Assembly: GCA_022824835.1 (NCBI GenBank)
Contig: JAJDZB010000029.1
Span: forward strand, 39,999-103,998
Direction: 5' to 3'
Source of the DNA: Candidatus Poribacteria bacterium
Lineage (GTDB): Bacteria > Poribacteria > WGA-4E > WGA-3G
Length of the DNA stretch: 64,000 nucleotides
In this document: in pieces, positions 1-49,342 of the stretch
Position numbering within the stretch: the stretch's first letter is position 1
How the letters are laid out: every line of letters begins with the position of its first letter
Position numbers and translations under genes: made by a program
Notes under the pieces: model-generated
Database searches by the model: none
What the model was told of the DNA's origin: nothing
Seen by the model: only the letters and a program-made list of their open reading frames with translations

Positions 1-1287
1 ACAGTAATTGCATCACATCCCAGCTATCAAACACATCGTTGGCGATGGGAGATGATACCGGACAAAACAGAATATATGTTGGGTGAGCTCAAACTGAAAC
101 CTTTTCTTTCTTTAACGGGAAAGGTAGAAGACACCAAGTCAAATCGGTCACGTCAAGGGCTCACTGTACGTTTAAAGATGCACAATACACCTGCTGATTT
201 CTTCCGTGCAGCAGCGCAGCCTGAACATACTGCTACAACTGATCAGGAAGGGAGATTTGTCTTTGCTGAACTACATCCGATAGATTATAGTTTGACAGTT
301 GCACAAAATGATGGTATCATTGCATATCTTGAAACTGTCAACCCACAAACCGATAACCCGCTACACATCCAATTGCCAAACTTGATAGCGTTACACGGTT
401 CGGTTGTTGATACACAACAGCAACCTTTATCAGATGTGCAAGTACGGACAATCCTTCATGCAAAAGAAAGTGGTGGACACGGCGCACACTTAGCCATGAC
501 ACAAACTGACGAACAGGGTGTCTTCAATCTGCAGGTCATTGCAGCTGCTAACGCACTTCTGTCCGTAGAAGTGTCAAAAAAAGGGTATCTATCAAGGGTT
601 TATCCAAATGTCAAAATTAGCAGAGACCCGGTGCATGTTACACTTGAAAAAGGTCATACAGTTAAGGGAACCGTCATTCTTCCGGTAAATACAGCAGCTA
701 CTTACTATGATATCAAGGTTTTTCCTATAGATGTTGAGATGACACCAAAGTTGGATCCACTGGCATTAAACAAACCTATAATGTCCAGACGATTCGATAT
801 GTCAGCACAAGAATTTGTTCTGGACGGTCTTTTTGGAGGGGAATATAAGTTGTTTATCACAGTAAGCAACTTTACATCAATCGGCATGAACGTAGAAGCA
901 GGTGAAAACGATGATGGTATATTAGTCGTTGCGGATAGACCGACGCGTAGCTTAATGGGGCAAGTGATGTGGTCAGATACGGGTGAACCTGTGGAAAACG
1001 CAGTTGTCGTACGTTCCTGGTATCCCTGGGATTTGGATAGATATGATATGTCATTGACCCTGGACCGCTTTGAAACTGAGACAGATGCTGAAGGAAAGTT
1101 TGTGTTTTCAGGTTTAACGCAAGGACGATACGCCTTACTTATCCGTACTGTTCATACGGTCTGGGTAAATGAAACGCGGAAATATAAACGCATCTATACG
1201 CAGAAGCAGGTTGAAATACCAATTTGTAGTGATAACACACATCATATCTATCTGGGAAGACAGGATGGGAGAACCTTCAAAAAATGA
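1..1287 (+). CDS. Protein with carboxypeptidase-regulatory-like (CarbopepD_reg) beta-sandwich repeats. The 5' end is truncated at the window edge.
   Basis: The ORF frame stays open back to position 1. It has repeated G-x-V-x-D...(T/E)D(A/Q)EG(K/R)F(V)F..L..G.Y.L motifs typical of CarbopepD_reg domains. Its stop overlaps the next start (ATGA). Confidence 0.4.
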   Translation, partial: TVIASHPSYQTHRWRWEMIPDKTEYMLGELKLKPFLSLTGKVEDTKSNRSRQGLTVRLKMHNTPADFFRAAAQPEHTATTDQEGRFVFAELHPIDYSLTVAQNDGIIAYLETVNPQTDNPLHIQLPNLIALHGSVVDTQQQPLSDVQVRTILHAKESGGHGAHLAMTQTDEQGVFNLQVIAAANALLSVEVSKKGYLSRVYPNVKISRDPVHVTLEKGHTVKGTVILPVNTAATYYDIKVFPIDVEMTPKLDPLALNKPIMSRRFDMSAQEFVLDGLFGGEYKLFITVSNFTSIGMNVEAGENDDGILVVADRPTRSLMGQVMWSDTGEPVENAVVVRSWYPWDLDRYDMSLTLDRFETETDAEGKFVFSGLTQGRYALLIRTVHTVWVNETRKYKRIYTQKQVEIPICSDNTHHIYLGRQDGRTFKK

Positions 1288-1988
1288 AAGAATCTGTCAA
1301 CAGCCTCAGCCTGTCAATCATCTTATGTCTCGCTTTTCTCCTACCCTTCCTTCTACAAGGGGACGTAGGTGCTGTAACATGGCAGGATGAATTCGATCTT
1401 GAGACGCAAGAAAATTGGCAATTACGAGGAGATGATTCTACCTGGCGAATTGAGGAAGGATACTTGCGCGCAAAAATCAACACCAAAAAGCAGTGGACGA
1501 CTATGTTTGAAGTCTTTGAATATACTAACCATGTAGGAGAGTTCAATAACATTACAATAAAAGCAGAAAACATAGGAGCATCCGGAGACGTCAAATTTGG
1601 TATAGTGATTGGTAAACACTTCCTAAATGACAATGGGGATTTAAAGGAAACAGGTTATTACCTGTTTCTCACAAATGATATGCAGGCATTAAGGGATGGA
1701 AAGGTGTTTCTTAGTACGGGCAGACGCTGGAATACTGATGTGCTTTACCAAATGACACTGCGCTTCAATGAAGGTAGATTTCAGTTTTTTGGTAATGACG
1801 AAACACGCATGGACTTTATAGATGCAAATCTAAAGACGATCGATTTCTTCGGTTTTGTCCTCGTCGGATATGTTACAGATTTGCCGAATACAGGTGAAGG
1901 ATACGTGGAACGCGTTACAATCTCCGGACTACCTGTAACAGCAAAAGATAAATTAACAACAACCTGGGGAGAGTTGAAGCAAGATTAA
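1284..1988 (+). CDS. Secreted concanavalin A-like (DUF1080/LamG-like jelly-roll) protein, paralog A1.
   Basis: It has an N-terminal signal peptide (MKESVNSLSLSIILCLAFLLPFLLQG). The 'WQDEFD...W...G...W.IEEG.L' start is typical of DUF1080-like lectin-fold proteins. The C-terminal KLTTTWGELKQD motif is shared with the genes at 2779..3477 and 48593..49342. Confidence 0.45.
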   Translation: MKESVNSLSLSIILCLAFLLPFLLQGDVGAVTWQDEFDLETQENWQLRGDDSTWRIEEGYLRAKINTKKQWTTMFEVFEYTNHVGEFNNITIKAENIGASGDVKFGIVIGKHFLNDNGDLKETGYYLFLTNDMQALRDGKVFLSTGRRWNTDVLYQMTLRFNEGRFQFFGNDETRMDFIDANLKTIDFFGFVLVGYVTDLPNTGEGYVERVTISGLPVTAKDKLTTTWGELKQD

Positions 1989-2015
1989 ACGCATACAAGC
2001 AGATGTTACACACTT

Positions 2016-2759
2016 ATGTTACAGAAGAATTTAGACCTTATTTTTAATTTATTCTTATTGATAGTACTAATTTCTGTTGCGTTCTGGGGTAAATTTGCAG
2101 GTGCAAGGTTAAACCCCCATGAACGTGCAAATCCAACCGCGTCCGGTGCATATTATCGCACACCCGGCAAAAATGGAAAATGGTTTGGTCCCGAAATTAA
2201 CTCGCTCACACTTTGTAAGGACACACACAACGTCTTTAACAATAGAGGCTTTTTTGACATAGTAGAAACGATTGAAAACGCAGTGGTATCTAAGTCTGAT
2301 ATTAGGGGCGCGCTGCACTGGTACAGGCGACAGAAGTGGACATTTGCAGATGACAACACGCCGTGGGGTACAAATGTGTCCATTATCACGTTGCATGACG
2401 ATCTTGGGTGGAGTGAGATAAGTACTGGAGGCGGGACAACCGGTTATCCGTGGAGTGGAATAGAACGGCATTGGCGCGATGGAAATATCATAAGACAACA
2501 AGCAACTGTGATGGGATGGCGACAGTATGCACGCGGGAGAGAACGATGGGTCTGTCCAATGTACTTCAAAATCGGGGGCTGGCAAGGAGAAGACCTTGAA
2601 GTACACTGCCAAACATATAGAACATGGTTCCCACCTGATTGGCAAGAACTGAAACAACGGGATGGCGACTTCGGGTTCCCAGTCGAACGTAAACCCGGGA
2701 TCATCAGCCGCAGAGGAAAACTAACACATAGATGGTATGATTGTATAAAAATCAACTGA
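2016..2759 (+). CDS. Hypothetical membrane-anchored protein.
   Basis: It has an N-terminal hydrophobic segment (IFNLFLLIVLISVAFW). It is W- and G-rich with no recognisable catalytic motifs. Confidence 0.3.
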   Translation: MLQKNLDLIFNLFLLIVLISVAFWGKFAGARLNPHERANPTASGAYYRTPGKNGKWFGPEINSLTLCKDTHNVFNNRGFFDIVETIENAVVSKSDIRGALHWYRRQKWTFADDNTPWGTNVSIITLHDDLGWSEISTGGGTTGYPWSGIERHWRDGNIIRQQATVMGWRQYARGRERWVCPMYFKIGGWQGEDLEVHCQTYRTWFPPDWQELKQRDGDFGFPVERKPGIISRRGKLTHRWYDCIKIN

Positions 2760-2778
2760 ACATCGTTTAGGTATAGAT

Positions 2779-3477
2779 ATGCGAACTATTCTGATCTTAC
2801 TAATCCTCATGTATTTATCCGTTAACAACACCGTTTCCACATCGGCAGATATATGGCACGATGACTTTGATATGGAGAATACCGAAGCATGGAAAAACAT
2901 CGGTGATAGAAGAGTGTGGAAAGTGGTTGATGGCATGTTACGCATTGAAGTCAATAGAGACTGGGCAGTTGGATATGAACTCTATGAACTCATAGCATTT
3001 CCCGGACACCATAGGGATTTTGTCGTTACAATCAAGAATTTTGGGGGTGACAAACTCCGTTTCGGTTTCTGCGTAGGACGACGTTTTCCTGAAACTGCTG
3101 ATGAAGACCCGTTCTATTATGTATTTTTTCCTGATGAAATTAGAGCACGACGTTTCAACGGCAGAGGCACCAGCCATCCTTTTCGGTATAGGTTGTCTCG
3201 TGAACCACGTCAACGTTGGAACACAGACGTTATAGAGGAGATGGAGTTACATTTTAACTCAGGTTTCTTCCTGCTGTTTGTTGATGGGGAATTCCGGACA
3301 AAATTCAAAGATTCAAACTTCAATCGGATAGAGATTCTCGGTTTTGTTGTGGAAGGAATCAACATCGCTAACGTATGGGAAGCTGAAGGTTGGGTTGATT
3401 CGTTCACTATTTCTGGTCTCAACGTCTCAGCAGAAGTTAAGGCAACAGAAACGTGGGCAGAAATAAAAGGGAACTGA
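2779..3477 (+). CDS. Secreted concanavalin A-like (DUF1080/LamG-like) protein, paralog A2.
   Basis: It has a signal peptide. 'IWHDDFDMENTEAWKNIGDRRVWKVVDGMLRIEV' parallels the start of the gene at 1284. The C-terminal KATETWAEIKGN motif is present. Confidence 0.45.
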   Translation: MRTILILLILMYLSVNNTVSTSADIWHDDFDMENTEAWKNIGDRRVWKVVDGMLRIEVNRDWAVGYELYELIAFPGHHRDFVVTIKNFGGDKLRFGFCVGRRFPETADEDPFYYVFFPDEIRARRFNGRGTSHPFRYRLSREPRQRWNTDVIEEMELHFNSGFFLLFVDGEFRTKFKDSNFNRIEILGFVVEGINIANVWEAEGWVDSFTISGLNVSAEVKATETWAEIKGN

Positions 3478-3497
3478 CAACTTTTTCTATAGTTTGG

Positions 3498-4226
3498 CTA
3501 ACGAACACTGCAAATTGCATCAGCACGTAGAATCTCATAATGAGGTAAACACTCAGATAATACACCTTCCAATTCCGTAGGAAAAGGTTCGCTTTTCGGT
3601 TTATACGGAACGAATCCTACGCTCCGATGCACGTTCTCATACCAATGCGGAGCCCAAACACCATCCGAAGGATGTCCACCACGCGTCCAAGACAGCATGT
3701 CTTCCTCAAACGGTATATCCAACTGAGAACAGAGGATTGACAAAACATGCTTCGGATTAAGCAACAATTCCTTTGCATCTAAGATAGGTGGTATCTGTCC
3801 AATCTTCCGTAATTCAGTCAATAGGTCAGCTTGAATCTTCAAACCCGTATCCTTCAAGGTAGGAATCCCAATTACTTTCGTTAATGAAGGAAGCATCTCC
3901 TTCGGATCACGAATGAGTAAGACATTCACAGTCTCCTGCAAGAATGCTCTGTTAATATTAACAAGATGATGTGCCATCATTTTCATGAAAAGCACAGGTT
4001 TAGCACATGCACCTAAAATAACATCCCGAATCACTACATCCACATCCGTTTCCATTGCGGAAATAACTGCATCTCGACCAGGATGCATTGCACCGGTCGT
4101 GTGTAGATAGTGAGCATATAACGGTTCATCAATAACTTCTGTATCACTCCGTTGTGCAAAAGCGTACATCAGAGCGGTCGATATATTCCGTGGTCCTGAC
4201 CAAAGGCACACTCTTTTCGTTTGCAT
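3498..4226 (-). CDS. P-loop sulfotransferase-like family protein.
   Basis: The N-terminal 'LWSGPRNISTALMYAF' resembles the PAPS-binding P-loop of sulfotransferase-family proteins. The assignment is tentative. Confidence 0.3.
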   Translation of the reverse strand: MQTKRVCLWSGPRNISTALMYAFAQRSDTEVIDEPLYAHYLHTTGAMHPGRDAVISAMETDVDVVIRDVILGACAKPVLFMKMMAHHLVNINRAFLQETVNVLLIRDPKEMLPSLTKVIGIPTLKDTGLKIQADLLTELRKIGQIPPILDAKELLLNPKHVLSILCSQLDIPFEEDMLSWTRGGHPSDGVWAPHWYENVHRSVGFVPYKPKSEPFPTELEGVLSECLPHYEILRADAICSVR

Positions 4227-4250
4227 GTGTATCCTCTAAATTTTATCTGA

Positions 4251-4835
4251 TTACCAACGCATTGCCGCTTCTCGGTAGAGTTGTATCTGTTCCATATTGC
4301 GTGGTACTGTTGCTTGTATAGATTTTCGTTTACGATTAAGATCCTTCAAAACTATCGGTGCGCGAAGCATATTCCTAAGTGTAACAATCCCAGACTCATA
4401 ATACACCCACATCCGTTGTTCTGTATAAGGATTGAGCACATACACGGAATTAAGATTCTCCGATTTACCCACGATTTCTGAGAATGAATCGTATTCGGGA
4501 TAGGTAAGTTCAATTGTCTTGTCGTATCCCTCAAGAAACATCTGATCCGGAGGGGGTTTGGGGGAATATCCACTCAATTTACACCTACAAAACTGTATCG
4601 GTGCAGCTGATTTGTTGATCAGATGGAGAGAAACCACAATGGATAAACGATTATTGTCATCACGATTGATAAACCATGTATCCTCCTGAATTAGGTTGAC
4701 CGTCAAACCGGGAATTTGCCTCCATCTGTGATATACGATTGCCAATGCAATCACGCATCCTAATATGAGTATCACCCACTGTCCTGTTGAAGATGCTATG
4801 AACTTTAGGAGTTCTTTAAATATCTGTTGTAACAA
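4251..4835 (-). CDS. Hypothetical membrane-anchored protein, downstream of tsaC in the same orientation.
   Basis: It has an N-terminal TM helix (WVILILGCVIALAIVY). Its start overlaps the end of tsaC. Confidence 0.35.
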   Translation of the reverse strand: MLQQIFKELLKFIASSTGQWVILILGCVIALAIVYHRWRQIPGLTVNLIQEDTWFINRDDNNRLSIVVSLHLINKSAAPIQFCRCKLSGYSPKPPPDQMFLEGYDKTIELTYPEYDSFSEIVGKSENLNSVYVLNPYTEQRMWVYYESGIVTLRNMLRAPIVLKDLNRKRKSIQATVPRNMEQIQLYREAAMRW

Positions 4836-6983: not shown

Positions 6984-7357
6984 CAGAATCGCGGATTACG
7001 CGGAAGGGGTTTCTTGTGCATTTTATGTTTACTTTCACAAGTTGGCGCGGATCTGACTGTTAAGGGGCAAAATATTTACGCGTCCGTTTTTGTACATAGT
7101 ACTCCGCTGGTGTGCAGCCCGTTGACAATCCTATTTCTATCGATATATTGCTCCGCTGGAGCATGGGTTCAGCGATCCTTCTTTCTGTCAATAAACATTC
7201 AATACCTTCACCAAGAAGATACATTCTGTTAGATTGTGCCTTTCTTTGTAGCACATTCTTTCAGAATGTACTTCTTTGTAACTGATCAATTTCATATAAT
7301 GATCCAGAAAATCCTTCCGTGCAAGCTATGTTAACTGGCACGTAATCCGCGATTCAG
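6984..7357. repeat. Pair of 17-bp inverted repeats flanking about 340 bp inside a large non-coding region.
   Basis: cagaatcgcggattacg at 6984-7000 and its near-perfect reverse complement cgtaatccgcgattcag at 7341-7357, with one mismatch. Confidence 0.4.
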
Positions 7358-7564
7358 ACAGATAGAGTGATAAGATATTTACACAACCCAGTTCATCTCA
7401 TCAAGGGATCCTTATCCTTCGAGTTGTCTGAACCTGGATTTACAGGATTAGAGGATTTTCAAGATAAGAGACATCTTCTCGTATTATATTCTACTGAGAA
7501 TGTGAAACCATTTGCGGTTCATTTCATGAAGTGAGTCTTATCCTGAAAATCCTGGTTTAGACAA

Positions 7565-9445
7565 TTATTTCAATATTAACATTTTCCGTGATGCAGTGAA
7601 ATCGCCAGCTTTAAGCGTATAGAAGAAAACACCACTTGCGACAGATTCACCTACTGCGTTTTTGCCATCCCAATATGCAGCACGACTTCTGTTGTGATAA
7701 ACACCTGCAACTTGGTGACCTAACGCCAATGTTCGAATCAATTGCCCATCTGCAGCATAGATGGAGACACTCACTTCTGCAGACTTTGCTAACTGATACG
7801 GTATCCACGTCTCCGGATTAAACGGGTTCGGGTAGTTTGCTAACAGTGCTGTCTCTTGCGGAACGAGGGATGCCAAAAGACGTTCCAAGTTCGCTATACC
7901 TTGTCGGAACACCAAAGAACCGTCGTTTTCAAGCTGCGCAAGTTCTAACCATTTTTTGACGAGTGCTGGGTCAACACCATCTAACTTCACAACACTTTCA
8001 GGTGCAGCAGCATTTGTTGTCTCCCCAAAATGTCCAGCGACAAGCACCAAGTCTAAGATATTGATACTCCCATCAGCATTGACATCTGCGCGTGGGACGG
8101 CTGTGATCGATCCGCCGATGTTTTGTCCCACAAGCACTAAATCCAATATGTTGACGCTACCGTCCTCATTCACATCCCATGCAGGATACGCGGGCTTTGG
8201 CGTAATCATGAGTTCCGCGGGTTCAAGATGTGGTCTCGTAAGCATGCCTTCACTATCGCTGAAGAGGATCTCTGTGATTTTCAAGGTAGTAACTTCTTCA
8301 CTGATTATATCAAACGTAAGTGTCACAAGTGTGCCATCCCCGTTGGTTTCTCCGACAAGGGACGTTGCTGCAACCGTCACAGTGTTTCCTACGATAATCG
8401 GTTGTATTATGTTTGGGTCTGCTGGTAGGAAATCAGCGTTGGCACTTGAAACATAACGGAGCGCGGATTCATCAAACTGTACAGTTGCCTGATAGCCTGA
8501 GATATTCTCTCCACCGGTAACGTTCAGGTTCAGCATAAGTTGCTCGCCGACAACCGGGGATGCCGAGGGGGCGGGAGATAAACTGACCGTAGCATCTACA
8601 AGTGGTATTATGTCTGGTGCTATGCTCAATGCAATACCAACGGGTGTTTGTAATCCTGAGACAATTGTTTCAACGTTTGATCCATCAAGATTCGCACGCT
8701 GAATTGCACCTGGAGAACCACCATGGTCGGGAGAAGTCCAATACATCTTACTATTTTGCAAATCTAATGTGATTCCTCCTGGAAATTGCAAACCGTCTAC
8801 AATGTCCTGTAGGTTTGAACCGTCAAAATTTGCACGTTGGATTTTCCCAGAATTAGGAATTATTTGACTCGTCGTAGATTCATATTGCCAATGGTTTGCC
8901 CAATACATGTGCTGATTCTCAATATCCAAAGAGAGGTAAGCAAGAAAACCCGATACGTTCGCTAAGTCCTCAACGTCAGTTCCATCAAGGTTTGCACGCC
9001 TAATTTTGTTAACGTCAGTCCAATACATCTTACCACCTGACAGATCTAAAGCGAGACCACGCGGAGTCACTAAAGTACTAACAAGCGTTTCAATGTTTGT
9101 ACCGTCCAAATTTGATCTCTGAATCGTATTCTGTCCTCTCTGAGATTCATTCCAATGGATCCAGTACATTTTTCGTGACGATAGGTCTAAAGCCAACGCC
9201 TCTTTAATGCTATCATCACCAGTAACAAGTATTTCAATATTTGATCCGTCAAGGTTTGCACGTCTGATGGAATTATTTCCATTCCAGTCATTCCAATACA
9301 TCTTTCCATTAGAAACATCTAAGGAAATTCCTACTGGTCTACTTAACCCAGTAATAATGTCTTGCACATTTGAACCATCAAGATGAGCGCGTTGGACTTT
9401 TCCAGATAGAAAGTCTGTCCAATACACATACTCAGGTTCTTCCAT
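7565..9445 (-). CDS. Secreted YWTD (LDL-receptor class B) beta-propeller protein with two dockerin-type repeats and a T9SS-type C-terminal sorting domain (FlgD-Ig/Por_Secre_tail-like).
   Basis: It has repeated '...MYW(T/A)D...IRRANLDGSN...' YWTD blades. The dockerin repeats are 'DVNEDGSVNILDLVLVGQ' and 'DVNADGSINILDLVLVAGHFG'. The C-terminus 'NYPNPFNPETWIPYQL...VSIYAADGQLIRTL...AYWDG...ASGVFFYTLKAGDF...KMLILK' matches the T9SS type-A CTD consensus. Confidence 0.6.
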   Translation of the reverse strand: MEEPEYVYWTDFLSGKVQRAHLDGSNVQDIITGLSRPVGISLDVSNGKMYWNDWNGNNSIRRANLDGSNIEILVTGDDSIKEALALDLSSRKMYWIHWNESQRGQNTIQRSNLDGTNIETLVSTLVTPRGLALDLSGGKMYWTDVNKIRRANLDGTDVEDLANVSGFLAYLSLDIENQHMYWANHWQYESTTSQIIPNSGKIQRANFDGSNLQDIVDGLQFPGGITLDLQNSKMYWTSPDHGGSPGAIQRANLDGSNVETIVSGLQTPVGIALSIAPDIIPLVDATVSLSPAPSASPVVGEQLMLNLNVTGGENISGYQATVQFDESALRYVSSANADFLPADPNIIQPIIVGNTVTVAATSLVGETNGDGTLVTLTFDIISEEVTTLKITEILFSDSEGMLTRPHLEPAELMITPKPAYPAWDVNEDGSVNILDLVLVGQNIGGSITAVPRADVNADGSINILDLVLVAGHFGETTNAAAPESVVKLDGVDPALVKKWLELAQLENDGSLVFRQGIANLERLLASLVPQETALLANYPNPFNPETWIPYQLAKSAEVSVSIYAADGQLIRTLALGHQVAGVYHNRSRAAYWDGKNAVGESVASGVFFYTLKAGDFTASRKMLILK

Positions 9446-28360: not shown

Positions 28361-30505
28361 ATGAAAAAGTTACTATTTCTGAATATCTTTTCTCTAATCC
28401 TCCTTACAACATACTACCATTCTAACGTTTCGGCTGAGAACCATACGCGTTGGGATTTACCAGATGGTGCAATTGCACGTATTGGAAAGGGTGAAATTGG
28501 TGCAATAAAGTACTCACCTAATGGCACGCAACTCGCGGTCGCCACTACCATCGGTATATGGCTATATGACGCTAAAACATATCAAGAATTAGACCTGTTA
28601 AAGGAGGCAGATGTTTCCCCTTATGACGAAAGAGGAATTGCTTTCAGTCCAGATGGTAACACCCTCGCGACTTCTAATGGTAGTTTTGGAGGTATTAAAC
28701 TATGGGATATTGCAAATGGCACAATAAAGAAAACACTATTGGACGGGATTATACCTAAGGGTGCTGAGAATGTGTTGTTCAGCCCTGATGGTACAACGCT
28801 TGCAACTTATAGATACAAGGAGCTATTTTTATGGGATGTTGTTACTGGTAAAAACAGGACTCTCGGCGGAAATACAGATTATGTTGGAGGATTCGCGTTA
28901 AGTCCTGATGGAAAGATACTCGCGAGTGGTAGCAGGGATCAGACTATCATTCTGTGGGATGTTGATACAGGTTCAATTAAACATACACTTAAGGGACATA
29001 CGGATTCTGTTACCAGTGTTTCTTTTAGTCCCGACGGTAAAACGCTTGCAAGCGGTAGTAGTGATAACGCAATCAGATTTTGGGATATTGAAACAGGCAC
29101 ACATGTGAAAACTTTCAAAGAAGCGGAGGTTAATGTTACACAAATATCATTTAGTCCGAATGGACAATTCATTTTAAGTTGGGGGAAGGGTAATTCCAAA
29201 ATCCTCTTGTGGGATGTCAATACTGGAGAATACAAGCAGATTGATGATAATAAGAAGCGACGCATGGGTGTCTGTTTCAATCCTGACGGTAATATGATCG
29301 CTGCAGCACATGAATACCATACTATCGATTTTTTTAATTTAACTACTGGAGAACACAAAAAAAGAATAGTTGGAAATAACTATAAAGATCTTACGTTTTT
29401 TATGGGTAAATTTGCTGATCTTACGCTAAGTCCTGATGGTACAAAGTTCGTAAGTATGAATATTGACAACTCTATTAACCTATGTGATATTACGTCTGGA
29501 CAATGCAAATTGCTAATACCACATACACCAGACCATAGTATCAGAAGTCTGAATAGATTTCTGTTTAGCTCAGATAGTAACCTGTTTGCGGGGATGTCTT
29601 CGGACGGTTTTATAGGGTTGTGGGATGCAAATACAGGTAATGAACGACACACTTCCAAAAGAATACAATTATTTGAAAAGAATCATACGGCATTAGATCA
29701 TAGTCCTCTGTATGCACCTGTATTCGGTTTTGCTTTTAGTCCAGATAGTCAGATACTCGCAAGTGCAAGTTCAAAACATTCAATCCATCTATTAGATACT
29801 ACAACGGGGAATATTAGACACTCACTCCAAGGTCATACTGCAAGGGTCGGGAGTCTCTCTTTTAGTTCCAATGGACAAACACTTGTGAGTGGAAGTCATG
29901 ACGGTACGATACGCTTTTGGAATACAACCACCGGAAAACTAAATAAAACCATAACAAACCGAATATTAACAAAGCAACAGACAATGGAACCCATCGCTAT
30001 CTCTACAATAGCATTAAATCCAGAAGGGGATAGAGTCGCAAGCGGCAACCAAGATGGAACTATCGTTATGTGGAATGTTGTTACCGGAGAAAAACAACTA
30101 ACTTTTACAGGACACGCTGATGCAATCTCAAAGATCTTTTTCAGTCCAGATGGACGTAAAGTCGTCAGCACAAGTAAAGACGGATCAGTTCGCCTATGGG
30201 ATGTCGCAACTGGACAGCAAGAATACGCCATCGCTGGTTACAGACTAACGGATTGGAAAGTATTTCTATATGAAAATGGAGTGTCACTGGCAAGCGAGAC
30301 GAAACTGGTGCTAGGTGCTGCTGGAAAACCTTATGTTAACTTATGGGATTTAAACACTAAAAAACGCATAAAAATACTGACAGGACACAATGATAGAGTC
30401 ACGAGCATCGATTTCAGTGACGATGGTAAGACGCTTATCAGCGGTAGCAGAGATGGAACTGTCCTTGTGTGGGATATCCCGAGCATCATTCAGGAGGTCG
30501 AATAA
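28361..30505 (+). CDS. WD40-repeat protein (about 14 blades, two propellers) with an N-terminal signal/anchor.
   Basis: It has repeated '...SPDGKTLASGSxDxTIxLWDVxTG' WD40 units and an N-terminal hydrophobic segment. Confidence 0.8.
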   Translation: MKKLLFLNIFSLILLTTYYHSNVSAENHTRWDLPDGAIARIGKGEIGAIKYSPNGTQLAVATTIGIWLYDAKTYQELDLLKEADVSPYDERGIAFSPDGNTLATSNGSFGGIKLWDIANGTIKKTLLDGIIPKGAENVLFSPDGTTLATYRYKELFLWDVVTGKNRTLGGNTDYVGGFALSPDGKILASGSRDQTIILWDVDTGSIKHTLKGHTDSVTSVSFSPDGKTLASGSSDNAIRFWDIETGTHVKTFKEAEVNVTQISFSPNGQFILSWGKGNSKILLWDVNTGEYKQIDDNKKRRMGVCFNPDGNMIAAAHEYHTIDFFNLTTGEHKKRIVGNNYKDLTFFMGKFADLTLSPDGTKFVSMNIDNSINLCDITSGQCKLLIPHTPDHSIRSLNRFLFSSDSNLFAGMSSDGFIGLWDANTGNERHTSKRIQLFEKNHTALDHSPLYAPVFGFAFSPDSQILASASSKHSIHLLDTTTGNIRHSLQGHTARVGSLSFSSNGQTLVSGSHDGTIRFWNTTTGKLNKTITNRILTKQQTMEPIAISTIALNPEGDRVASGNQDGTIVMWNVVTGEKQLTFTGHADAISKIFFSPDGRKVVSTSKDGSVRLWDVATGQQEYAIAGYRLTDWKVFLYENGVSLASETKLVLGAAGKPYVNLWDLNTKKRIKILTGHNDRVTSIDFSDDGKTLISGSRDGTVLVWDIPSIIQEVE

Positions 30506-32458
30506 ATGAAAACAAAACTACGTCCAATTTACATTATCCTGTGCGGTATAATCGCTGTTCTAATCCTGAGTCTTGTCTTAAGTCAATCTCAAAAAGAACA
30601 TTTTCAAAATGAGACTATTCTTCACGAGTCCCCCCAACTGAATCTACCTAAAGATGTTAAACTGCGTATCGGCAAAGGGAGTGTGAACGAGTTAACATAT
30701 TCACCGGATGGTTCTGCTTTAGCAGTCGTAACTTCCACAGGTATATGGCTGTATGATACGACCACATATCAAATGCAAACTGTGTTGTCAGGTGGAAGTT
30801 ATGGTAATATGAATGCGGTGTTTAGTCCCGATGGAAGATTTCTCATCGCTGGCAGCCCAGATAGAATTATCTATTTATGGGATACTTCAACATACAGACT
30901 CAAACAGACTCTTGTTGGGCATGAGAGTGCAATAACGAATCTCCTATTTAGCTTTGATGGAAAAACAATTGTAAGTACGGACATACACGAGATTAACCTG
31001 TGGGATGTCTCTACTGGTACCCATAAGAACTACAGCAGGGGTTATGTTCCAAGGCTGGGGTGTAGTATATGGCTCAATAATGATGAGGGACTTTTGGCAA
31101 CTACGGAATCCAATAATGACAATAGAGTACGTATATCCGATCTCATCACAAGGGAAGTAAAGATGGAACTGGGTGGACACACGAACCATATAAAAAGCCA
31201 ATCATTTAGTCCAGATGGAAAGTTACTCGCAAGTGGGAGTTGGGACACAACCATACGGATATGGAGAATGCCAGAAGGAATACATAAGTCGACCTTAAAG
31301 GGACATGAGAAAAGTATCAATAAAATTGTGTTTAGTCATGATAGCCAATTTCTTGCGAGTGCAAGTAGGGATGACACCGTCCGTATATGGAATGTGAATT
31401 CAGGTAAACTTAAAAACACTCTTAAAGCACATTCAGCAGATGTTAAGCACATAGCACTCAGTCCTGATGGGAAAACACTTGCAAGTTGGGGGTACGATCA
31501 CATGCTACACATCTGGGATGTTGACACTGGAAAACTCAAGCAGACAATCACCGGCCACCTTGCACCTATTTCGTCCGTTTCATTTCGTCGCGATTCAGAG
31601 ATGCTTGCGTTCGGAGCATCCAAAGAAATCCATCTTTGGGATATAGTTGAAGGTTTACACTATAAGACACTTTTCGGCCACAAAGGATCTGTCGACTGCC
31701 TGGCATTTAATCCTTCTGACAATACACTCGCAAGTGGTAGTGTTGACGAGACAATACGACTGTGGGATACAGACTCCGGCAACAGTAGAAAAACTATCAA
31801 AGGACATGTTACTGATAAAGATACTTACTCAAAAATTAGAAGCCTATCTTATAGTCCTGATGGGAAAACACTTGCAAGCTCAAGCAACGATAGGACGATC
31901 CGTTTGTGGAAGGCAAGAAGTGGTTGGCATCAGAAGACTATCAAAGGACATACAGACGCGGTTAGATCGCTTGCGTTCAGTCCTGATGGGAAAACAGTGG
32001 CAAGCGGTGGGGGCTCGGACGATAGTACCGTTCGGTTGTGGGATGTTACAAACGGAAAACAGAAGATAATACTTACTGATTTTACATCAGGTGTATCTGC
32101 AGTAACGTTCAGTCCAAATGGAAACATCCTTGCAAGTGGCGATAAAGATAGTGTTAAACTATGGGATGTTAACACAGGTGTATTACTGAGAGTTTTAGGT
32201 TCGGATATATTTATTGTTAGTAGTTTATCTTTCAGTCCTGATGGGAAAACACTTGCATGTGGGAGTTGGGATAGTAAAGTCAGACTATGGGATGTTGCTA
32301 CAGGAAAGTTGAAAGAAACACTTACAGGACACTCAAATTTGGTCTTTGGTGTGGCGTTTAGTTCTGATGGGAAGACTCTGGCAAGTGCCAGTGCAGACGG
32401 AACTGTGTTGCTCTGGGATATGGAAGCAATTATCAATAGAACAGATCTCGTGAAATAA
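30506..32458 (+). CDS. WD40-repeat protein, paralog 2.
   Basis: It has the same architecture as the gene at 28361. Its start immediately follows the stop of the previous gene (TAAATG). Confidence 0.8.
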   Translation: MKTKLRPIYIILCGIIAVLILSLVLSQSQKEHFQNETILHESPQLNLPKDVKLRIGKGSVNELTYSPDGSALAVVTSTGIWLYDTTTYQMQTVLSGGSYGNMNAVFSPDGRFLIAGSPDRIIYLWDTSTYRLKQTLVGHESAITNLLFSFDGKTIVSTDIHEINLWDVSTGTHKNYSRGYVPRLGCSIWLNNDEGLLATTESNNDNRVRISDLITREVKMELGGHTNHIKSQSFSPDGKLLASGSWDTTIRIWRMPEGIHKSTLKGHEKSINKIVFSHDSQFLASASRDDTVRIWNVNSGKLKNTLKAHSADVKHIALSPDGKTLASWGYDHMLHIWDVDTGKLKQTITGHLAPISSVSFRRDSEMLAFGASKEIHLWDIVEGLHYKTLFGHKGSVDCLAFNPSDNTLASGSVDETIRLWDTDSGNSRKTIKGHVTDKDTYSKIRSLSYSPDGKTLASSSNDRTIRLWKARSGWHQKTIKGHTDAVRSLAFSPDGKTVASGGGSDDSTVRLWDVTNGKQKIILTDFTSGVSAVTFSPNGNILASGDKDSVKLWDVNTGVLLRVLGSDIFIVSSLSFSPDGKTLACGSWDSKVRLWDVATGKLKETLTGHSNLVFGVAFSSDGKTLASASADGTVLLWDMEAIINRTDLVK

Positions 32459-32498
32459 GGCAGATACTAAGAGAAGTCTATCAAGGAAAAGACATAAA

Positions 32499-34583
32499 AT
32501 GAAAAAGACATTGCTTTCAATTGCTCTGATAGTAGGCATCGTTGCGTTTTTTTTAATACTGCAAACTATTTCAAAACGCGAACATCCGGATCACATGATG
32601 TTTATTCCTGATAATCCACAGTTAAACTTACCGGAAAATGTGAAGGCACGGTTAGGAAAAGGTAGCGTTGAAATGTTAGTGTTTTCTCCTGATGGTAACG
32701 TATTAGCAGTTGTGAGTACTATTGGCATTTGGTTGTATGATGCACATACTGGTGAATTTCAATCAATGGTGTCGGCTAACTCTGGACAGATAGCAGATAT
32801 TGCCTTCACACCAGATAGCCAGACACTTGCCTGTGGGGAAGAGGACGGACCCATCAGTTTGTGGGATGTGTCAACAGGAACTCTCAAGAGAACCTTAAGA
32901 ATAGATCGCATGTGGTCACTTAGCAGTATTGCGTTTATTAACAACGGAAAAACATTAGTTAGTGCAGCGGATTATCATTATTTGGACTTTTGGGATGTGT
33001 CAACAGGAGAACTTCCGCTGTCTCACTTTAATGGATATTCACGAGACAAAACTGTTTTTAGTCCTGATGGGATGAAACTTGCCAGTACAAATCCCAAATT
33101 TGAAATCACGCTATGGGATGTTCCAACAGGTCAACATAGTGAAACTGTCTTAAAAAATGAAAACACTGTTACGGATTTGAGATTTAGTCCTGACGGAAAA
33201 GTATTGGTAAGTATAGCTGCAGATAAAACTATACACTTGTGGGATGTTGAAGAGCTCAAGTACTTACGGACAATTCAAGAAAAAAGGAATTACGCTTCTA
33301 CAGTTGCGTTCAGTCCGGATGGTAAACTTCTTGCGCGTCCGAATGCTGATAATACAATACATTTCTGGGATGTTGCCACTGGCACACTTGAAAGAACCAT
33401 TACTGGACACACATCTCCTGTCAAGAACGTAGTATTTAGTCCTGATGGTAAGACATTAGCAAGCTGGAGTGAGCACGGACTTCTTCATTTGTGGGATTTC
33501 GCAACAGGAGAGATCAAGAAAACGATCACGGGTCATATTTCTAATACTCAAAAGGTATTGCTGAGTCCAGACGGACAGACATTAGCAACACAGGATGTTA
33601 TAGATAAAAAGATAATTCATCTGTGGAATGCCAATACAGGGGAACACGAGAAAACGCTCTTAGGACATAAGAAAAATATCCAAGATGTGGCATTTAGTCC
33701 TGTTGGAACTATACTTGCAACGGCAGCTAATAAAACCATCCGTTTATGGGATATTGAATCAGGTAAACAGAAGAAAGCATTTAAAGGACATACACAACTA
33801 ATTATCGACCTTTCGTTTAGTCCTAATGGTAAAATGCTGGCAAGTATAGATTTCTACGGTGTTATTCGCCTCTGGGATATGGAGTCGGGAAAAAGATTTG
33901 GAACTATCAGGACGCGTACAGGTGGATTTTCCCATATAGAGTTTAGTTCCGATGGCAAAACACTTTTAAGAGTATTCTGGGACCGTTCTTTCAAATTATG
34001 GGATGTAGCAACATTTAAGCAAAAGCAAACTAATATCGTAAAAGGAGATGAACCTAAAATTGATAATCTATCTAAACTGAGTCCAGATTTTCAGACGGTA
34101 GCAACTTCACTTTCTGATCGTAAGGGTTGGACAGGACCAGATTTTCAGATAGGCCTGTGGGATGTTGCTTCGGGTGAGTTTACACATACACTTATTGGAC
34201 ATACCGATAGCATTACATCCATTGCTTTCAGTCCAGATAGTAACATGTTGATAAGCTGCGCGAATGATAATACAATCAGAATGTGGGATGTCGCCTCGGG
34301 TGAGCAGAAACGTATAATTACTCGTCAAGATCTTCCATTTCCACAGAACGTTGTTTGGCAGACCGTTGTTTGGGATGAGGGATTCAGTTTGGATGGTCGC
34401 ATTCTCACCCACACAACGGGGGAAGGTCTTATACATCTATGGGATTCATTTACTGGTCAACATAAGAAAACACTCAAAGGACATACAGATAAAATTGTTA
34501 GTTTATCATTCAGTATAGACAATCATATCTTAGTCAGTAAGAGCAAAGATGGGACAGTCTTGGTATGGGACTTGCAACATTAA
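32499..34583 (+). CDS. WD40-repeat protein, paralog 3.
   Basis: It has the same architecture, with an N-terminal TM segment and 13-14 WD40 units. Confidence 0.8.
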   Translation: MKKTLLSIALIVGIVAFFLILQTISKREHPDHMMFIPDNPQLNLPENVKARLGKGSVEMLVFSPDGNVLAVVSTIGIWLYDAHTGEFQSMVSANSGQIADIAFTPDSQTLACGEEDGPISLWDVSTGTLKRTLRIDRMWSLSSIAFINNGKTLVSAADYHYLDFWDVSTGELPLSHFNGYSRDKTVFSPDGMKLASTNPKFEITLWDVPTGQHSETVLKNENTVTDLRFSPDGKVLVSIAADKTIHLWDVEELKYLRTIQEKRNYASTVAFSPDGKLLARPNADNTIHFWDVATGTLERTITGHTSPVKNVVFSPDGKTLASWSEHGLLHLWDFATGEIKKTITGHISNTQKVLLSPDGQTLATQDVIDKKIIHLWNANTGEHEKTLLGHKKNIQDVAFSPVGTILATAANKTIRLWDIESGKQKKAFKGHTQLIIDLSFSPNGKMLASIDFYGVIRLWDMESGKRFGTIRTRTGGFSHIEFSSDGKTLLRVFWDRSFKLWDVATFKQKQTNIVKGDEPKIDNLSKLSPDFQTVATSLSDRKGWTGPDFQIGLWDVASGEFTHTLIGHTDSITSIAFSPDSNMLISCANDNTIRMWDVASGEQKRIITRQDLPFPQNVVWQTVVWDEGFSLDGRILTHTTGEGLIHLWDSFTGQHKKTLKGHTDKIVSLSFSIDNHILVSKSKDGTVLVWDLQH

Positions 34584-38767: not shown

Positions 38768-39367
38768 ATGCTAAAATATCAGATCGCATTTCTTATCATG
38801 CTAATCGGTTGCGTCGCCATAGTGTCATGTAGTCGAATTCAGGATACGTTAATGCAAGTCCCGGATGATCCAGAACCGGATGCATACCGAACCTGGACAG
38901 ATATGATAACACTTGATGGACCATTGGTGGAATTTAAGGGAGAAGCTCATGATTTTGGATCCCGTACAATCTACTTTAACGAAGCCGCTGCTATGGCTAA
39001 TAACGAAGGAACAGACTATCCGGTCGGTTCCATGATAGTTAAAGAATCAATGGATATGACCAACTCATTTATCTCACAGATCTCAACGATGACTAAAACC
39101 GAGTCTGCAGAAAATGGCGGTTGGGCTTATGGCGTAACCGGTCCATTTGGTGATGCAGCTGTAGATCCGAAGGGAATAAATAATCTGACAGCAGAAATGG
39201 CTGCAGGCGCATGTGTGGGTTGTCATACAGTAGCAGCTGATACCGATTTTGTCTTCGTTAAACTCGCCATGGAAGATGATGGCATGACCGATGATGGCAT
39301 GACCGATGATGGTGATGGTGAAACTACCACCACTACCAACGGTAATGGAAACGGGAACGGTGCCTAA
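38768..39367 (+). CDS. c-type haem (CXXCH) lipoprotein, cytochrome P460-like, with an acidic repeat tail.
   Basis: It has a lipobox (LIGCVAIVSCS) and a single CVGCH motif near the C-terminus, as in cytochrome P460. The tail is MTDDGMTDDGMTDDGDGETTTTTNGNGNGNGA. Confidence 0.4.
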   Translation: MLKYQIAFLIMLIGCVAIVSCSRIQDTLMQVPDDPEPDAYRTWTDMITLDGPLVEFKGEAHDFGSRTIYFNEAAAMANNEGTDYPVGSMIVKESMDMTNSFISQISTMTKTESAENGGWAYGVTGPFGDAAVDPKGINNLTAEMAAGACVGCHTVAADTDFVFVKLAMEDDGMTDDGMTDDGDGETTTTTNGNGNGNGA

Positions 39368-45688: not shown

Positions 45689-45842
45689 TTTTTCTCCTTC
45701 GTCTCAACCATTCTTATTTTGACTCTTATACCATTTCTAATTATAGCACTTTTTCGGATAAATGACTACTCTTTTGATAGCGATATAGCAATTGACTTTT
45801 TTATTTGAAAATGATACATTACCAAAACGAGGAGGACACAAC

Positions 45843-47222
45843 ATGGCAACACTATCACAAACTGAAAATCAGATTAGACCCCTGTACATAGATGGATACA
45901 CAGATCAACTCAGTTATGCACCTAAAGAAGAAATCGCCTTTAACGTGTCAACGAGTGCTGGACAATATGCACTGGAGATTGCACGAATCGGGGTAACGCG
46001 TGAGGTTGTATTCAATGAATCAGGAATTCCCGGACAGGCACAACCAATTCCTATCAATGCTTCATCTCATGGGTGCGGATGGAATCCTACTTTTAAACTT
46101 GAAGTGCCAGAAGATTGGAAAAGCGGCTATTATGAAGCCATACTCCGCGCATCAGATGGCGGTGGTGATACCATCTATAGAAATCATCGCACCGCAGAAA
46201 GTTCACTCTTCTTTATTGTGCGCGCAGCAGATCCTGGCGTAAATACACCTATTTTACTCCAACTTTCTACAAACACTTACAATGCCTATAACAATTGGGG
46301 TGGTTTCAGTCTTTACGGATACCACGGACAAAACACGCTACAGGGTAACCGCGTCTCATTTAACCGACCAACCGAAGGGATTTTCAGAAACTGGGAATTA
46401 CCCTTTATTGTCTGGGCAGAACAGAACGGATACATATTGGATTATGCTGCCAATAGTGACCTGGAGTTTCATCCTGACATATTGGAACACTATAAGTTGG
46501 TATTGAGTGTTGGTCATGACGAATACTGGTCAGCACCGATGCGTGATAATCTTGAGACTTATATTGCAAATGGTGGTAACGCAGCCTTCTTCAGCGGGAA
46601 TTCAGTCTGTTGGCAGGTGCGGTCAGAAGATGAAGGACGCGCATTAGTCTGTTGGAAACAGAGTTTCAACTTAGACCCAATCTACAAGACCGATGACTAC
46701 AGCACGTTGAGCACGCTGTGGAGTCATCATCTGGTAAATCGTCCCGAAAATCAACTCACAGGTGTCGGATTCCTTCAAGGAGGATATCACCTGAGTCACG
46801 GACAATTTATGGACGGTGACGGAGCTTATACTGCACACCGTCCAGAACACTGGGTGTTTGAAGGTACAGACTTGAAACAAAACCAAAAATTTGGTGGACA
46901 GAATACCATTGTAGGGTACGAGTGTGATGGCTGTGAATTTACAATTGAAGATGGGTTACCTGTACCCACCTATAAAGACGGTACACCTGAAGGGTTTACA
47001 ATTCTCGCAACTGCACCTGTCCGATGGCATCCAGATGATTGTGAATGGTATGAACGATGGGAACAAGGACATACAGGTGCAGCAACGATGGGTATCTACA
47101 CAAAAGGTGGCACTGTCTTTACCGCAGCTACAACTGACTGGTCACACGGATTAGCAGGGAGTGACACTGTTGTTGAAAGGATTACACACAATGTATTGAA
47201 AAAACTTGCAGGTTTGCAGTAG
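45843..47222 (+). CDS. N,N-dimethylformamidase large-subunit-like (DmfA2-like) protein.
   Basis: 'STNTYNAYNNWGGFSLYGYHG' and 'ANGGNAAFFSGNSVCWQVR' resemble the DmfA2 family. AGGAGG lies 7 nt upstream of the ATG at 45843. Confidence 0.4.
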   Translation: MATLSQTENQIRPLYIDGYTDQLSYAPKEEIAFNVSTSAGQYALEIARIGVTREVVFNESGIPGQAQPIPINASSHGCGWNPTFKLEVPEDWKSGYYEAILRASDGGGDTIYRNHRTAESSLFFIVRAADPGVNTPILLQLSTNTYNAYNNWGGFSLYGYHGQNTLQGNRVSFNRPTEGIFRNWELPFIVWAEQNGYILDYAANSDLEFHPDILEHYKLVLSVGHDEYWSAPMRDNLETYIANGGNAAFFSGNSVCWQVRSEDEGRALVCWKQSFNLDPIYKTDDYSTLSTLWSHHLVNRPENQLTGVGFLQGGYHLSHGQFMDGDGAYTAHRPEHWVFEGTDLKQNQKFGGQNTIVGYECDGCEFTIEDGLPVPTYKDGTPEGFTILATAPVRWHPDDCEWYERWEQGHTGAATMGIYTKGGTVFTAATTDWSHGLAGSDTVVERITHNVLKKLAGLQ

Positions 47223-48385: not shown

Positions 48386-48592
48386 GTACTAAATTCACGC
48401 TTAAGGTACGATATCCCCATCGCACTGGGATGATTTTTCTTGCATGAAATTAACTTCTATTGTATGATACACACGTTATTAGTGATGAAGTGTTTCTTTA
48501 AGTATAACATCGTTTGATATTTTACGATACAGAAATCACATCTCCACTCTCCATCTACGGTGATGGAGCCAAAATCAGAAAAGGAGGAAAAG

Positions 48593-49342
48593 GTGACATA
48601 TAGAAAGACTTTTATGACGGTAATAATCTTAACCATTATACTATCACCAAGTGTCGTATTGGCTGCCGGTCTTTCGGATAATCTCGTGGGATATTGACCC
48701 TTGGATGGTAATGGTAAAGACGAATCAGGTAATGGAAATGATGCAACATTGGAAACTGGTGCAAAATGGGTGACAAATGGATGGATCAACGGTGCCATAG
48801 AAGTAGATGGCAATGGTGGACACGCGGTTGTTGATGCTGGATTTGAACTGGTTACCACAGAAATCACTGTTGCAGCAAGAGTTAACGGGTGGAGAACAAT
48901 CCCGTGGTCAGGTGTAGTTGTCGGTCGTAGTGATACAACATTTTGGTTAGGGATTGCAGACAACGACACATTGACTTATGTGTGGAATAATAACTCCGGT
49001 GAGACCTGGGGTTGGAAAGGTGCACCCGCATTTCCCCAAGACAGATGGGCGTTAGTTGCCATCGCAATCGCAGAAGATAAAGCTACCAGTTATGTCTACG
49101 ACAGAGACAGTGGAACTCTGGATTCCGCTGACAATGAAATTTCACACGTTGAGCAGACAGTCATTAATCTGAAATTCGGATGGGACGATTGCTGTGGCGC
49201 GAGATATTTCAAAGGTATCATAGACGACGTCATGGTTTTTGATCGCACTTTAAGTGCTGATGAAATTACAGATTTAGCAGCTGGTGGACTTCCTGTTGAA
49301 AGCAGAGGTAAACTCACCACTACCTGGGCAGCACTTAAGTAA
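48593..49342 (+). pseudogene. Secreted LamG (Laminin_G_3) domain protein interrupted by an in-frame TGA at the conserved Trp of the LVGYWPLDG motif.
   Basis: After the RBS AAGGAGG, GTG at 48593 gives MTYRKTFMTVIILTIILSPSVVLAAGLSDNLVGY-TGA(48695-48697)-PLDGNGKDESGNGNDATL.... Downstream, 'RYFKGIIDDVMVFDRTLSADEI' is canonical LamG_3. It ends with the C-terminal KLTTTWAALK motif. Confidence 0.55.

Follow-up and report, generated by a model that had tools for sequence, protein, structure and literature searches.

Can proteins that share little beyond their last few residues be carrying a common sorting signal? The question is raised by a 64,000-nucleotide stretch of the genome of a Candidatus Poribacteria bacterium (GenBank assembly GCA_022824835.1, contig JAJDZB010000029.1, positions 39,999 to 103,998; hereafter, the window), in which three open reading frames (ORFs), numbered here 1 to 3 in the order of their positions, all close with the motif K[LA]T[TE]TW[GA]x[LI]K, 0-2 residues ahead of the stop codon. 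Poribacteria are among the most abundant symbionts of sponges and have never been cultivated, and domain content has so far been the sole basis for inferring which of these symbionts' proteins arrive at the cell surface or the host. Here, we report that the ending belongs to a longer conserved tail which is carried by many unrelated proteins, and we consider it rather probable, judging from the sequences, that this tail is a modular, phylum-specific sorting or anchoring tag that would act after Sec export and be recognised by a machinery of its own.

Endings of the three window proteins

The C-terminus of ORF1 is ...LPVTAKDKLTTTWGELKQD (also written KLTTTWGELKQD), that of ORF2 is ...LNVSAEVKATETWAEIKGN (also written KATETWAEIKGN) and that of ORF3, ending at 49342, is ...LPVESRGKLTTTWAALK, that is, KLTTTWAALK followed directly by the stop. 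A first-pass annotation of the window had reported a shared motif at the extreme C-terminus of three proteins, two of them with clear signal peptides. The three endings confirm the former, and the latter holds for ORF1 (MKESVNSLSLSIILCLAFLLPFLLQGDVGA, followed by VTWQ) and ORF2 (MRTILILLILMYLSVNNTVSTSA, followed by DIW); in homologues of gene 1, the A/VTWQ junction after the hydrophobic stretch is conserved. A six-frame scan of the whole window for TW[GAS]x[LIVM]K returned four occurrences, three of which are the extreme C-termini of ORF1 to ORF3, while the fourth falls in a minus-strand stop-to-stop segment of 21 codons (63069-63134).

The description of the three as lectin-fold paralogs stands only in part. 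ORF1 and ORF2 are indeed paralogous (33% identity, E 2e-36). ORF3 has only the tail in common with them; its alignment with ORF1 is confined to the last 25 residues and therefore the three cannot be regarded as three paralogues. ORF3 had also been annotated as one continuous frame (48593-49342), which it is not, as an in-frame TGA at 48695-48697 divides its signal peptide from its body. The signal peptide starts from an ATG at 48563, upstream of the TGA; the remaining 213 codons are intact and encode a body that matches Laminin_G_3 (PF13385; E 2.4e-13, 50.9 bits, gathering cut-off 27.6). A 96%-identical orthologue (P0241) is an unbroken protein of 261 amino acids (aa) that reads LVGYWPLDG at this site, and the tryptophan is found in more than 100 homologues of gene 3. 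Because the orthologues have Trp, the window copy is explained by a TGG to TGA nonsense change or a sequencing error. We take the TGA to be a recent nonsense mutation or a sequencing or assembly error, with read-through less likely. The three window genes are ordinary members of a large set of tagged genes, one of them being a pseudogene or the product of a sequencing error.

Extent and conservation of the tail

The motif as first described has the core ending right and its extent wrong: the conserved unit comprises about 17 residues, beginning with L-A/P-V-E/D/S-P/A five residues before the Lys. The consensus is L-A-V-[ED]-[PA]-x-G-K-L-T-T-T-W-G-x-[LI]-K (as a peptide, LAVEPQGKLTTTWGKLKSR), and in broader form [LTF]-[APS]-V-[EDS]-[PA]-x-[GDA]-K-L-T-T-T-W-[GA]-x-[LI]-K, after which come 0-8 residues, most of them polar or basic. 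All 150 regular-expression matches, drawn from 122 loci, sit 0-8 residues (mode 3) before the stop codon. When scored with an 18-column matrix, 189 of the 835 ORFs in the loci reached 10 bits or more no further than 10 residues from the C-terminus, and no internal copy was found among 241,881 internal positions (best score -6.3 bits). Positions outside the search pattern are also conserved, with Val at -5 in 146 of the 150 tails, L-A before it and E/D-P/A after it. The V-[ED]-[PA] element is conserved with Pro at -3 in 93 of the 150, and has no Pro ahead of the Glu. Upstream of position -7, relative to the Lys, conservation is lost abruptly and the information content is below 1 bit. The residues that trail the tag, 0-8 in number, are rich in R, S, Q, N and K, mostly with a net charge of 0 to +1.

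At the nucleotide level, codons vary at every degenerate position, with six codons used for Leu and four for each Thr, and the tag is followed by TAA in 81 cases, TAG in 46 and TGA in 23. Amino-acid replacements within the tag are conservative (G/A, L/I/M, T/A). As synonymous codons, stop codons and the trailing length all vary, the target of selection is the peptide rather than a DNA element. The tail is retained among orthologues as divergent as 44% identity and, on this comparison of sequences, is under purifying selection at the peptide level.

Conservation differs between the two paralogues in the window. The tail of ORF2 is degenerate, scoring 16 bits on the tail matrix versus 48 bits for ORF1, and gene 2 orthologues end in KVTSTWAQLK, RLTSTWGQLK and RLTLIWGRLK. 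All 70 homologues of ORF1 retain the ending ISGL[PA]VSPKxKLTT[TI]WGxLK.

Variant tails were also observed in some lineages or families (...MWGWLKQLGAGGR and ...LSTWGWLK). In the uncultured bacterium SRP200020_co5_420 (locus L065), two PD40 propeller proteins (1424-4511 and 7151-7999, minus strand) have the divergent tails ...HRAVMWGWLKQLGAGGRNQ and ...ELSTWGWLKATGR and adjoin Kelch proteins bearing the canonical KLTTTWGAMK. These variants suggest a lineage-specific drift of the tag.

Distribution across genomes

A degenerate DNA scan for K-[LF]-T-T-T-W-[GA]-x-[LIVM]-K was carried out on one genome per species (185,579 species). At least 120 loci were returned, against about 13 chance matches expected in the whole collection under uniform base composition. 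Of the 120 loci listed, 111 are labelled Poribacteria and 117 have the tail at the C-terminus (0-8 residues before the stop), with one further locus cut at its edge. The listed loci without a tail, one Synechococcus and one Clostridia contig, belong to the chance class, and seven listed loci from outside the Poribacteria (unclassified metagenome-assembled genomes or other phyla) also bear tails. By these labels, the tag is Poribacteria-specific among the listed loci. Contig names, together with a 99%-identical protein (P0001), assign the window itself to Poribacteria. Viral contigs subjected to the identical scan gave a single match, located outside every listed ORF (at least 30 aa).

Canonical tails were seen on contigs binned elsewhere, namely in a Pseudomonadota bin (L024, RHO2_bin_21) and a Planctomycetota bin (L042, NIOZ-UU13). 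The former may be mis-binned, as it has low coverage and shares the RHO2 sponge sample series with a Poribacteria bin.

A tail profile, seeded with ORF fragments of 41-70 aa from a 40-column profile search, was searched against 1.84 billion cluster representatives (50%-identity clusters) and matched 1,797 proteins at E<=1e-3, with 180 of these at E<=1e-10. Nearly all of the top 150 matches end at most six residues from the C-terminus. Tagged genes may be densely packed, with up to five tails per 8 kb, and many carriers are tandem LamG paralogues. The three tails in the 64-kb window, taken together with the unselected flanks of two further loci (L001 and L002), suggest as a rough estimate tagged genes on the order of a hundred per genome.

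Carrier proteins and export

Removal of the tail from 132 full-length carriers left bodies that fall into at least 26 groups unlinked by BLAST. The first-pass annotation had considered that the motif might be restricted to the three paralogs; it is instead carried by these 26 groups, by 117 of the 120 loci listed and by 1,797 cluster representatives. Its suggestion of a possible sorting, anchoring or processing signal is supported. The Pfam families of the carriers represent more than 10 folds in all and include Laminin_G_3, F5_F8_type_C (discoidin), 3keto-disac_hyd (DUF1080), CBM9, CBM_4_9, He_PIG, Kelch, LTD, HmuY, Ank, Reprolysin, LRR, WD40 and Cadherin. Homologue searches with the bodies returned almost exclusively tail-bearing poribacterial proteins.

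An N-terminal hydrophobic stretch is present in 119 of 129 tagged proteins (~92%) versus 206 of 536 untagged ones (38%; odds ratio 19, p 3e-31), and a lipobox-like motif in only 4 of the 132 carriers. Most of the top matches of the tail profile measure 900-2,200 aa and combine a signal peptide with LTD, cadherin, Big, LRR or WD40 domains.

One family of giant proteins (P0093-P0240; loci L015, L027, L040, L075 and L083) has in common a C-terminal module of about 100 aa. This module reads LPVxLSxF...NNAGFNILRS...VVYYYQIEDVSLDG..., also given as PNVVYYYQIEDVSLDG, and leads into ...AAGKLTTTWGxLK; the C-terminal region of about 140 aa of these proteins has no match in Pfam or NCBIfam. A module of the form LPVxLSxF...NNxGFxIxRS...YxYRL presumably precedes type IX secretion system (T9SS) C-terminal domains (CTDs) in other phyla, a resemblance that we take as a lead only.

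Predicted structure

The AlphaFold2 (AF2) model of ORF1 is a jelly-roll beta-sandwich with a predicted local distance difference test (pLDDT) score of 74. Foldseek retrieved GH16 enzymes and legume lectins at probability 1.0 with template modelling (TM) scores of just 0.4-0.5, and there is no Pfam match; the modelled body would thus resemble these enzymes and lectins loosely. For P0249, a LamG protein orthologous to ORF3, the model has pLDDT 94-98 over the body and 57-65 over the last 21 residues, falling below 50 at residues 237-240. The P0249 model renders the tail as a short LAVE strand and, after a break, a second strand (KLTTT) and a helical turn (WGTLKR). In the ORF1 model a similar low-confidence pattern of strand, turn, strand and short helix follows an unrelated body. 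Low tail pLDDT beside such well-folded bodies points to a flexible appendage outside the fold of the passenger.

Comparison with known C-terminal signals

No match to the tail was found in Pfam or NCBIfam (release 20), whether whole carriers were searched or, even at E<=10, ten isolated tails. TIGR04183, the model of the T9SS type A CTD, matched neither the tagged proteins nor the tails; the YWTD protein of the window, which passes this model with 26.3 bits against a cut-off of 23, served as the positive control. TIGR02595 (PEP-CTERM) likewise matched neither whole proteins nor, at E<=10, the ten isolated tails, and a search of the tail profile against PDB sequences gave chance-level internal matches only (E ~0.1). 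The maximum hydropathy of any 15-residue stretch in the last 30 aa is 1.47 at most (median 0.41), with none of the 132 carriers reaching 1.6. The earlier statements that the motif differs from PEP-CTERM, GlyGly-CTERM and the T9SS CTD, and that the YWTD protein bears a T9SS CTD, are therefore both upheld, the former by the lack of a transmembrane segment and of any Pfam or NCBIfam model match.

The T9SS type A CTD (TIGR04183, Por_Secre_tail) is similar to the tag in combining an N-terminal Sec signal with a helix-free C-terminal signal on many unrelated secreted or surface proteins of diderm bacteria, and it is present in the same genomes on the same kinds of passenger. However, the T9SS CTD folds into a beta-sandwich of 70-100 aa, whereas the tag has about 17 conserved residues, low predicted order and neither the NYPNPF nor the K-x-L-x-K signature. 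Since a canonical T9SS CTD protein is encoded in the same window, the tag is a separate signal that coexists with it.

The PEP-CTERM/exosortase signals (TIGR02595), LPXTG, GlyGly-CTERM and MYXO-CTERM also occupy the extreme C-terminus, are restricted to particular lineages and occur on many unrelated exported proteins. PEP-CTERM may further resemble the tag in having a short signature, (V)PEP in the one and V-E/D-P in the other, followed by a short basic end. In signals of this class, the motif and the basic cluster are separated by a hydrophobic transmembrane helix some 20 residues long. The tag, with the low maximum hydropathy given above, has no membrane-spanning stretch and hence the architecture of PEP-CTERM, LPXTG, GlyGly-CTERM and MYXO-CTERM is excluded.

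Two other systems are alike in form. The cargo peptides of encapsulins and microcompartments are conserved ends of about 10-20 residues behind a variable linker, by which one receptor recognises unrelated proteins; however, encapsulin and microcompartment cargos are cytoplasmic, whereas the tagged proteins bear signal peptides, and the sequences are unrelated. The beta-signal of outer-membrane proteins, recognised by BAM, is likewise a beta-strand motif at the C-terminus and is read in the periplasm, as the tag would be. This signal has an aromatic residue at the last position and is part of the barrel, whereas the tag ends in a variable number of polar or basic residues and is found on soluble domains. 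In the absence of a terminal aromatic residue and with soluble passengers, the tail is not an outer-membrane beta-signal.

Full-text literature searches yielded no description of the motif, and for sorting signals, type IX secretion or the secretome of Poribacteria only Kamke et al. 2014 (PMC3909097) was relevant. That study reported TIGR04183 on poribacterial WD40 and other repeat proteins, detected no Por genes in single-cell genomes and makes no mention of the KLTTTW tail. The tail is apparently undescribed and apparently belongs to the known class of C-terminal sorting signals.

Proposed role and competing explanations

In the role that we favour, that of a sorting or anchoring tag, the precursor would cross the inner membrane through Sec by means of a type I signal peptide, as the observed N-termini suggest. 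The folded passenger, whether a lectin-like or CBM-like domain, a giant protein of adhesin-like type or a eukaryote-like repeat protein, would be joined through a variable linker to the tag as its flexible appendage, a step for which the basis is the AF2 confidence and the loss of conservation upstream. A lineage-specific receptor would then bind the KLTTTW strand, probably by beta-strand addition, resulting in delivery to or retention at the surface; such a receptor might act as a translocon in the outer membrane, as a shuttle or as an anchor at the surface. The terminal carboxylate itself would not be recognised, since 0-8 residues may trail the tag, and the presumed need for a free C-terminal end would favour threading or end-on strand insertion. 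More speculatively, the invariant Val and the E/D-P may mark a site of processing or transfer, by analogy with PEP, LPXTG and the cleavage of T9SS CTDs by PorU. A more far-reaching proposal, to which we give slightly less than even credence, is that Poribacteria have an undescribed secretion or surface-anchoring pathway in which the tag LAVEPxGKLTTTWGxLK would be read by a dedicated receptor or enzyme, parallel to the T9SS-type CTD, and which would deliver the lectins, giant adhesins and eukaryote-like repeat proteins by means of which the symbionts deal with their sponge hosts.

Several points weigh against such a role. Among the neighbours of tagged genes in the 122 loci there is no candidate receptor, sortase, protease or outer-membrane protein. 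The neighbours come from generally abundant families of these genomes (GFO/IDH/MocA, PhyH, FGE-sulfatase, FG-GAP, TPR, ECF sigma, PBP1 and DUF6785), and the apparent enrichment of PBP1 and DUF6785 was discarded as a lead, since conserved synteny or the multi-copy nature of a family accounts for it. Signal peptides were called by a hydrophobicity heuristic, which 38% of the untagged ORFs also pass, and the low AF2 confidence of the tail is compatible with a flexible tag but is no proof of one. To our knowledge, a helix-free signal of 17 residues has no precedent among sortase-type signals, so that the analogy is one of logic only.

The lack of a partner gene in the neighbourhoods would also be expected if the tail anchored its carriers directly, without a protein receptor, as an interfacial peptide that sticks to lipopolysaccharide, the outer membrane or a surface polysaccharide. 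Low-molecular-weight penicillin-binding proteins have C-terminal amphipathic anchors of such a type, and the composition of the tail is in keeping with one: its two Lys and its Trp are invariant and a Leu is conserved, with Lys/Arg flanks around a Trp/Leu/Thr core, Arg-rich trailing residues with a net charge that is mostly 0 to +1, and a short helix over WGxLKx in the AF2 models. However, K, L, T, T, T, W and K are near-invariant over about 1,800 cluster representatives and the upstream V-E-P is conserved as well. Lipid anchors tolerate variation, and near-invariance therefore makes a specific contact with a protein more likely. The core is also not simply amphipathic (mean hydropathy -0.18), and we regard direct anchoring as unlikely.

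A structural or self-associating element, in which the tail forms a beta-hairpin cap or a zipper for oligomers or for a common extracellular matrix, appears to us about equally doubtful. The strand-turn-strand and helix drawn by AF2 in two families would suit it, as would the prevalence of binding modules and adhesin-like proteins among the carriers; in the giant proteins, where the tail follows a module of about 100 aa with an FN3-like look, it might complete that module. Against this, the same 17 residues are found behind jelly-rolls, beta-propellers, ankyrin and LRR solenoids and a metalloprotease, folds so different that the tail cannot be an integral strand of each. Furthermore, pLDDT is 57-65 in the tail versus 94-98 in the body, the linker upstream of -7 is unconserved, and an oligomerisation motif needs no strict C-terminal placement.

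Simple paralogy, with the ending as a remnant of the common ancestry of a few related lectin genes, agrees with the relationship of ORF1 to ORF2 and with the many tandem LamG paralogues among the carriers, but is ruled out as highly improbable by the tail-only similarity of ORF3 to ORF1, the 26 unlinked body groups with more than 10 Pfam folds, and conservation that ends seven residues before the Lys. The probability is slimmer still for a DNA or RNA element at the 3' ends of genes (a terminator, recombination site or repeat) with the peptide as its by-product, which would account for the constant proximity to a stop codon but is ruled out by the variation in codons, stop codons and motif-to-stop distance (0-8 codons) and by the conservative replacements.

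If the tail is indeed a sorting or anchoring tag, it would represent a C-terminal sorting signal distinct both from folded domains and from motifs that have a transmembrane helix and a basic end. It marks about 1,800 protein clusters, including LamG and CBM lectins, cadherin and LTD giants, and ankyrin, LRR, WD40 and Kelch proteins. Such a tag would define a candidate surface proteome or exoproteome, provide the first functional attribute for most of these 'hypothetical proteins', and make a concrete search for the reading machinery possible. It also bears on the question left by Kamke et al. 2014 of how repeat proteins are exported without Por genes.

Features of the locus and of the window

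The coordinates of the tagged genes and of the features discussed with them are listed in Table 1.

Table 1. Positions of the tagged genes, their signal peptides and tags, and associated features in the window
Feature	Position	Strand	Basis or remark
CarboxypepD_reg-repeat protein, upstream operon partner	52..1287	+	Pfam; stop overlaps start of gene 1 (ATGA)
Tagged gene 1 (ORF1)	1284..1988	+	234-aa exported protein, predicted jelly-roll (ConA/GH16-like), without Pfam family
Signal peptide of gene 1 (MKESVNSLSLSIILCLAFLLPFLLQGDVGA)	1284..1373	+	Read from sequence; putative cleavage site
C-terminal tag of gene 1 (LPVTAKDKLTTTWGELKQD)	1929..1985	+	Tail-matrix score 48 bits; AF2 pLDDT 57-64
Conserved 247-aa gene between tagged genes	2016..2759	+	N-terminal hydrophobic segment; ends ...GKLTHRWYDCIKIN
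Tagged gene 2 (ORF2)	2779..3477	+	232-aa paralogue of gene 1, 33% identity
Signal peptide of gene 2 (MRTILILLILMYLSVNNTVSTSA)	2779..2847	+	Putative cleavage site
Degenerate C-terminal tag of gene 2 (LNVSAEVKATETWAEIKGN)	3418..3474	+	Tail-matrix score 16 bits
YWTD/LDL-receptor-B, cohesin and dockerin protein with T9SS type A CTD	7565..9445	-	Pfam; TIGR04183
Tagged gene 3 (ORF3)	48563..49342	+	Laminin_G_3 (Pfam PF13385), broken by in-frame TGA
In-frame TGA at conserved Trp codon	48695..48697	+	LVGY(stop)PLDG vs LVGYWPLDG
C-terminal tag of gene 3 (LPVESRGKLTTTWAALK)	49289..49339	+	Stop immediately follows Lys

Genes 1 and 2 form part of a four-gene order (52-3477, plus strand) which consists of the CarboxypepD_reg-repeat gene, tagged gene 1, the 247-aa gene and tagged gene 2, with a Sulfotransfer_5 gene on the opposite strand. 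Synteny of this arrangement extends to at least two closed poribacterial genomes, and the synteny of gene 2 is kept in loci L001, L002 and L109. The CarboxypepD_reg-repeat protein, about 700 aa in relatives (712 aa in L001 and 698 aa in L002), is probably cut by the edge of the window.

The 247-aa gene has no match in Pfam or NCBIfam. Further copies were found in L001 (10733-11476), L002 (10606-11475), L031, L073 and L109, and its conserved ending, GK(L/K)T(H/Q)(R/Q)WYDCIKI(N/R), is tag-like in appearance only. The GKLTHRWYDCIKIN end of the window copy was considered as that of a fourth tagged protein and rejected, as it does not score on the tail matrix.

The YWTD protein ends in ...NYPNPFNPETW...GVFFYTLKAGDFTASRKMLILK, and orthologues of its CTD are present in L122 and L013. 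Three tandem WD40 beta-propeller proteins of 650-714 aa (28361-34583, plus strand) have signal-peptide-like N-termini; when their C-termini were read, neither a KLTTTW tail nor a T9SS-CTD-like ending was seen. Other poribacterial WD40 proteins, such as P0198, bear the tail. Elsewhere in the window, a lipoprotein-like ORF (38768-39367, plus strand) has the N-terminus ...LIGCVAIVSC and a low-complexity end that is acidic and of Thr/Asn-Gly type (DDGMTDDGMTDDGDGETTTTTNGNGNGNGA), and the region 45792-47222 (plus strand) strongly matches the C-terminal domain of N,N-dimethylformamidase beta subunit-like proteins (PF20254, E 1.7e-86).

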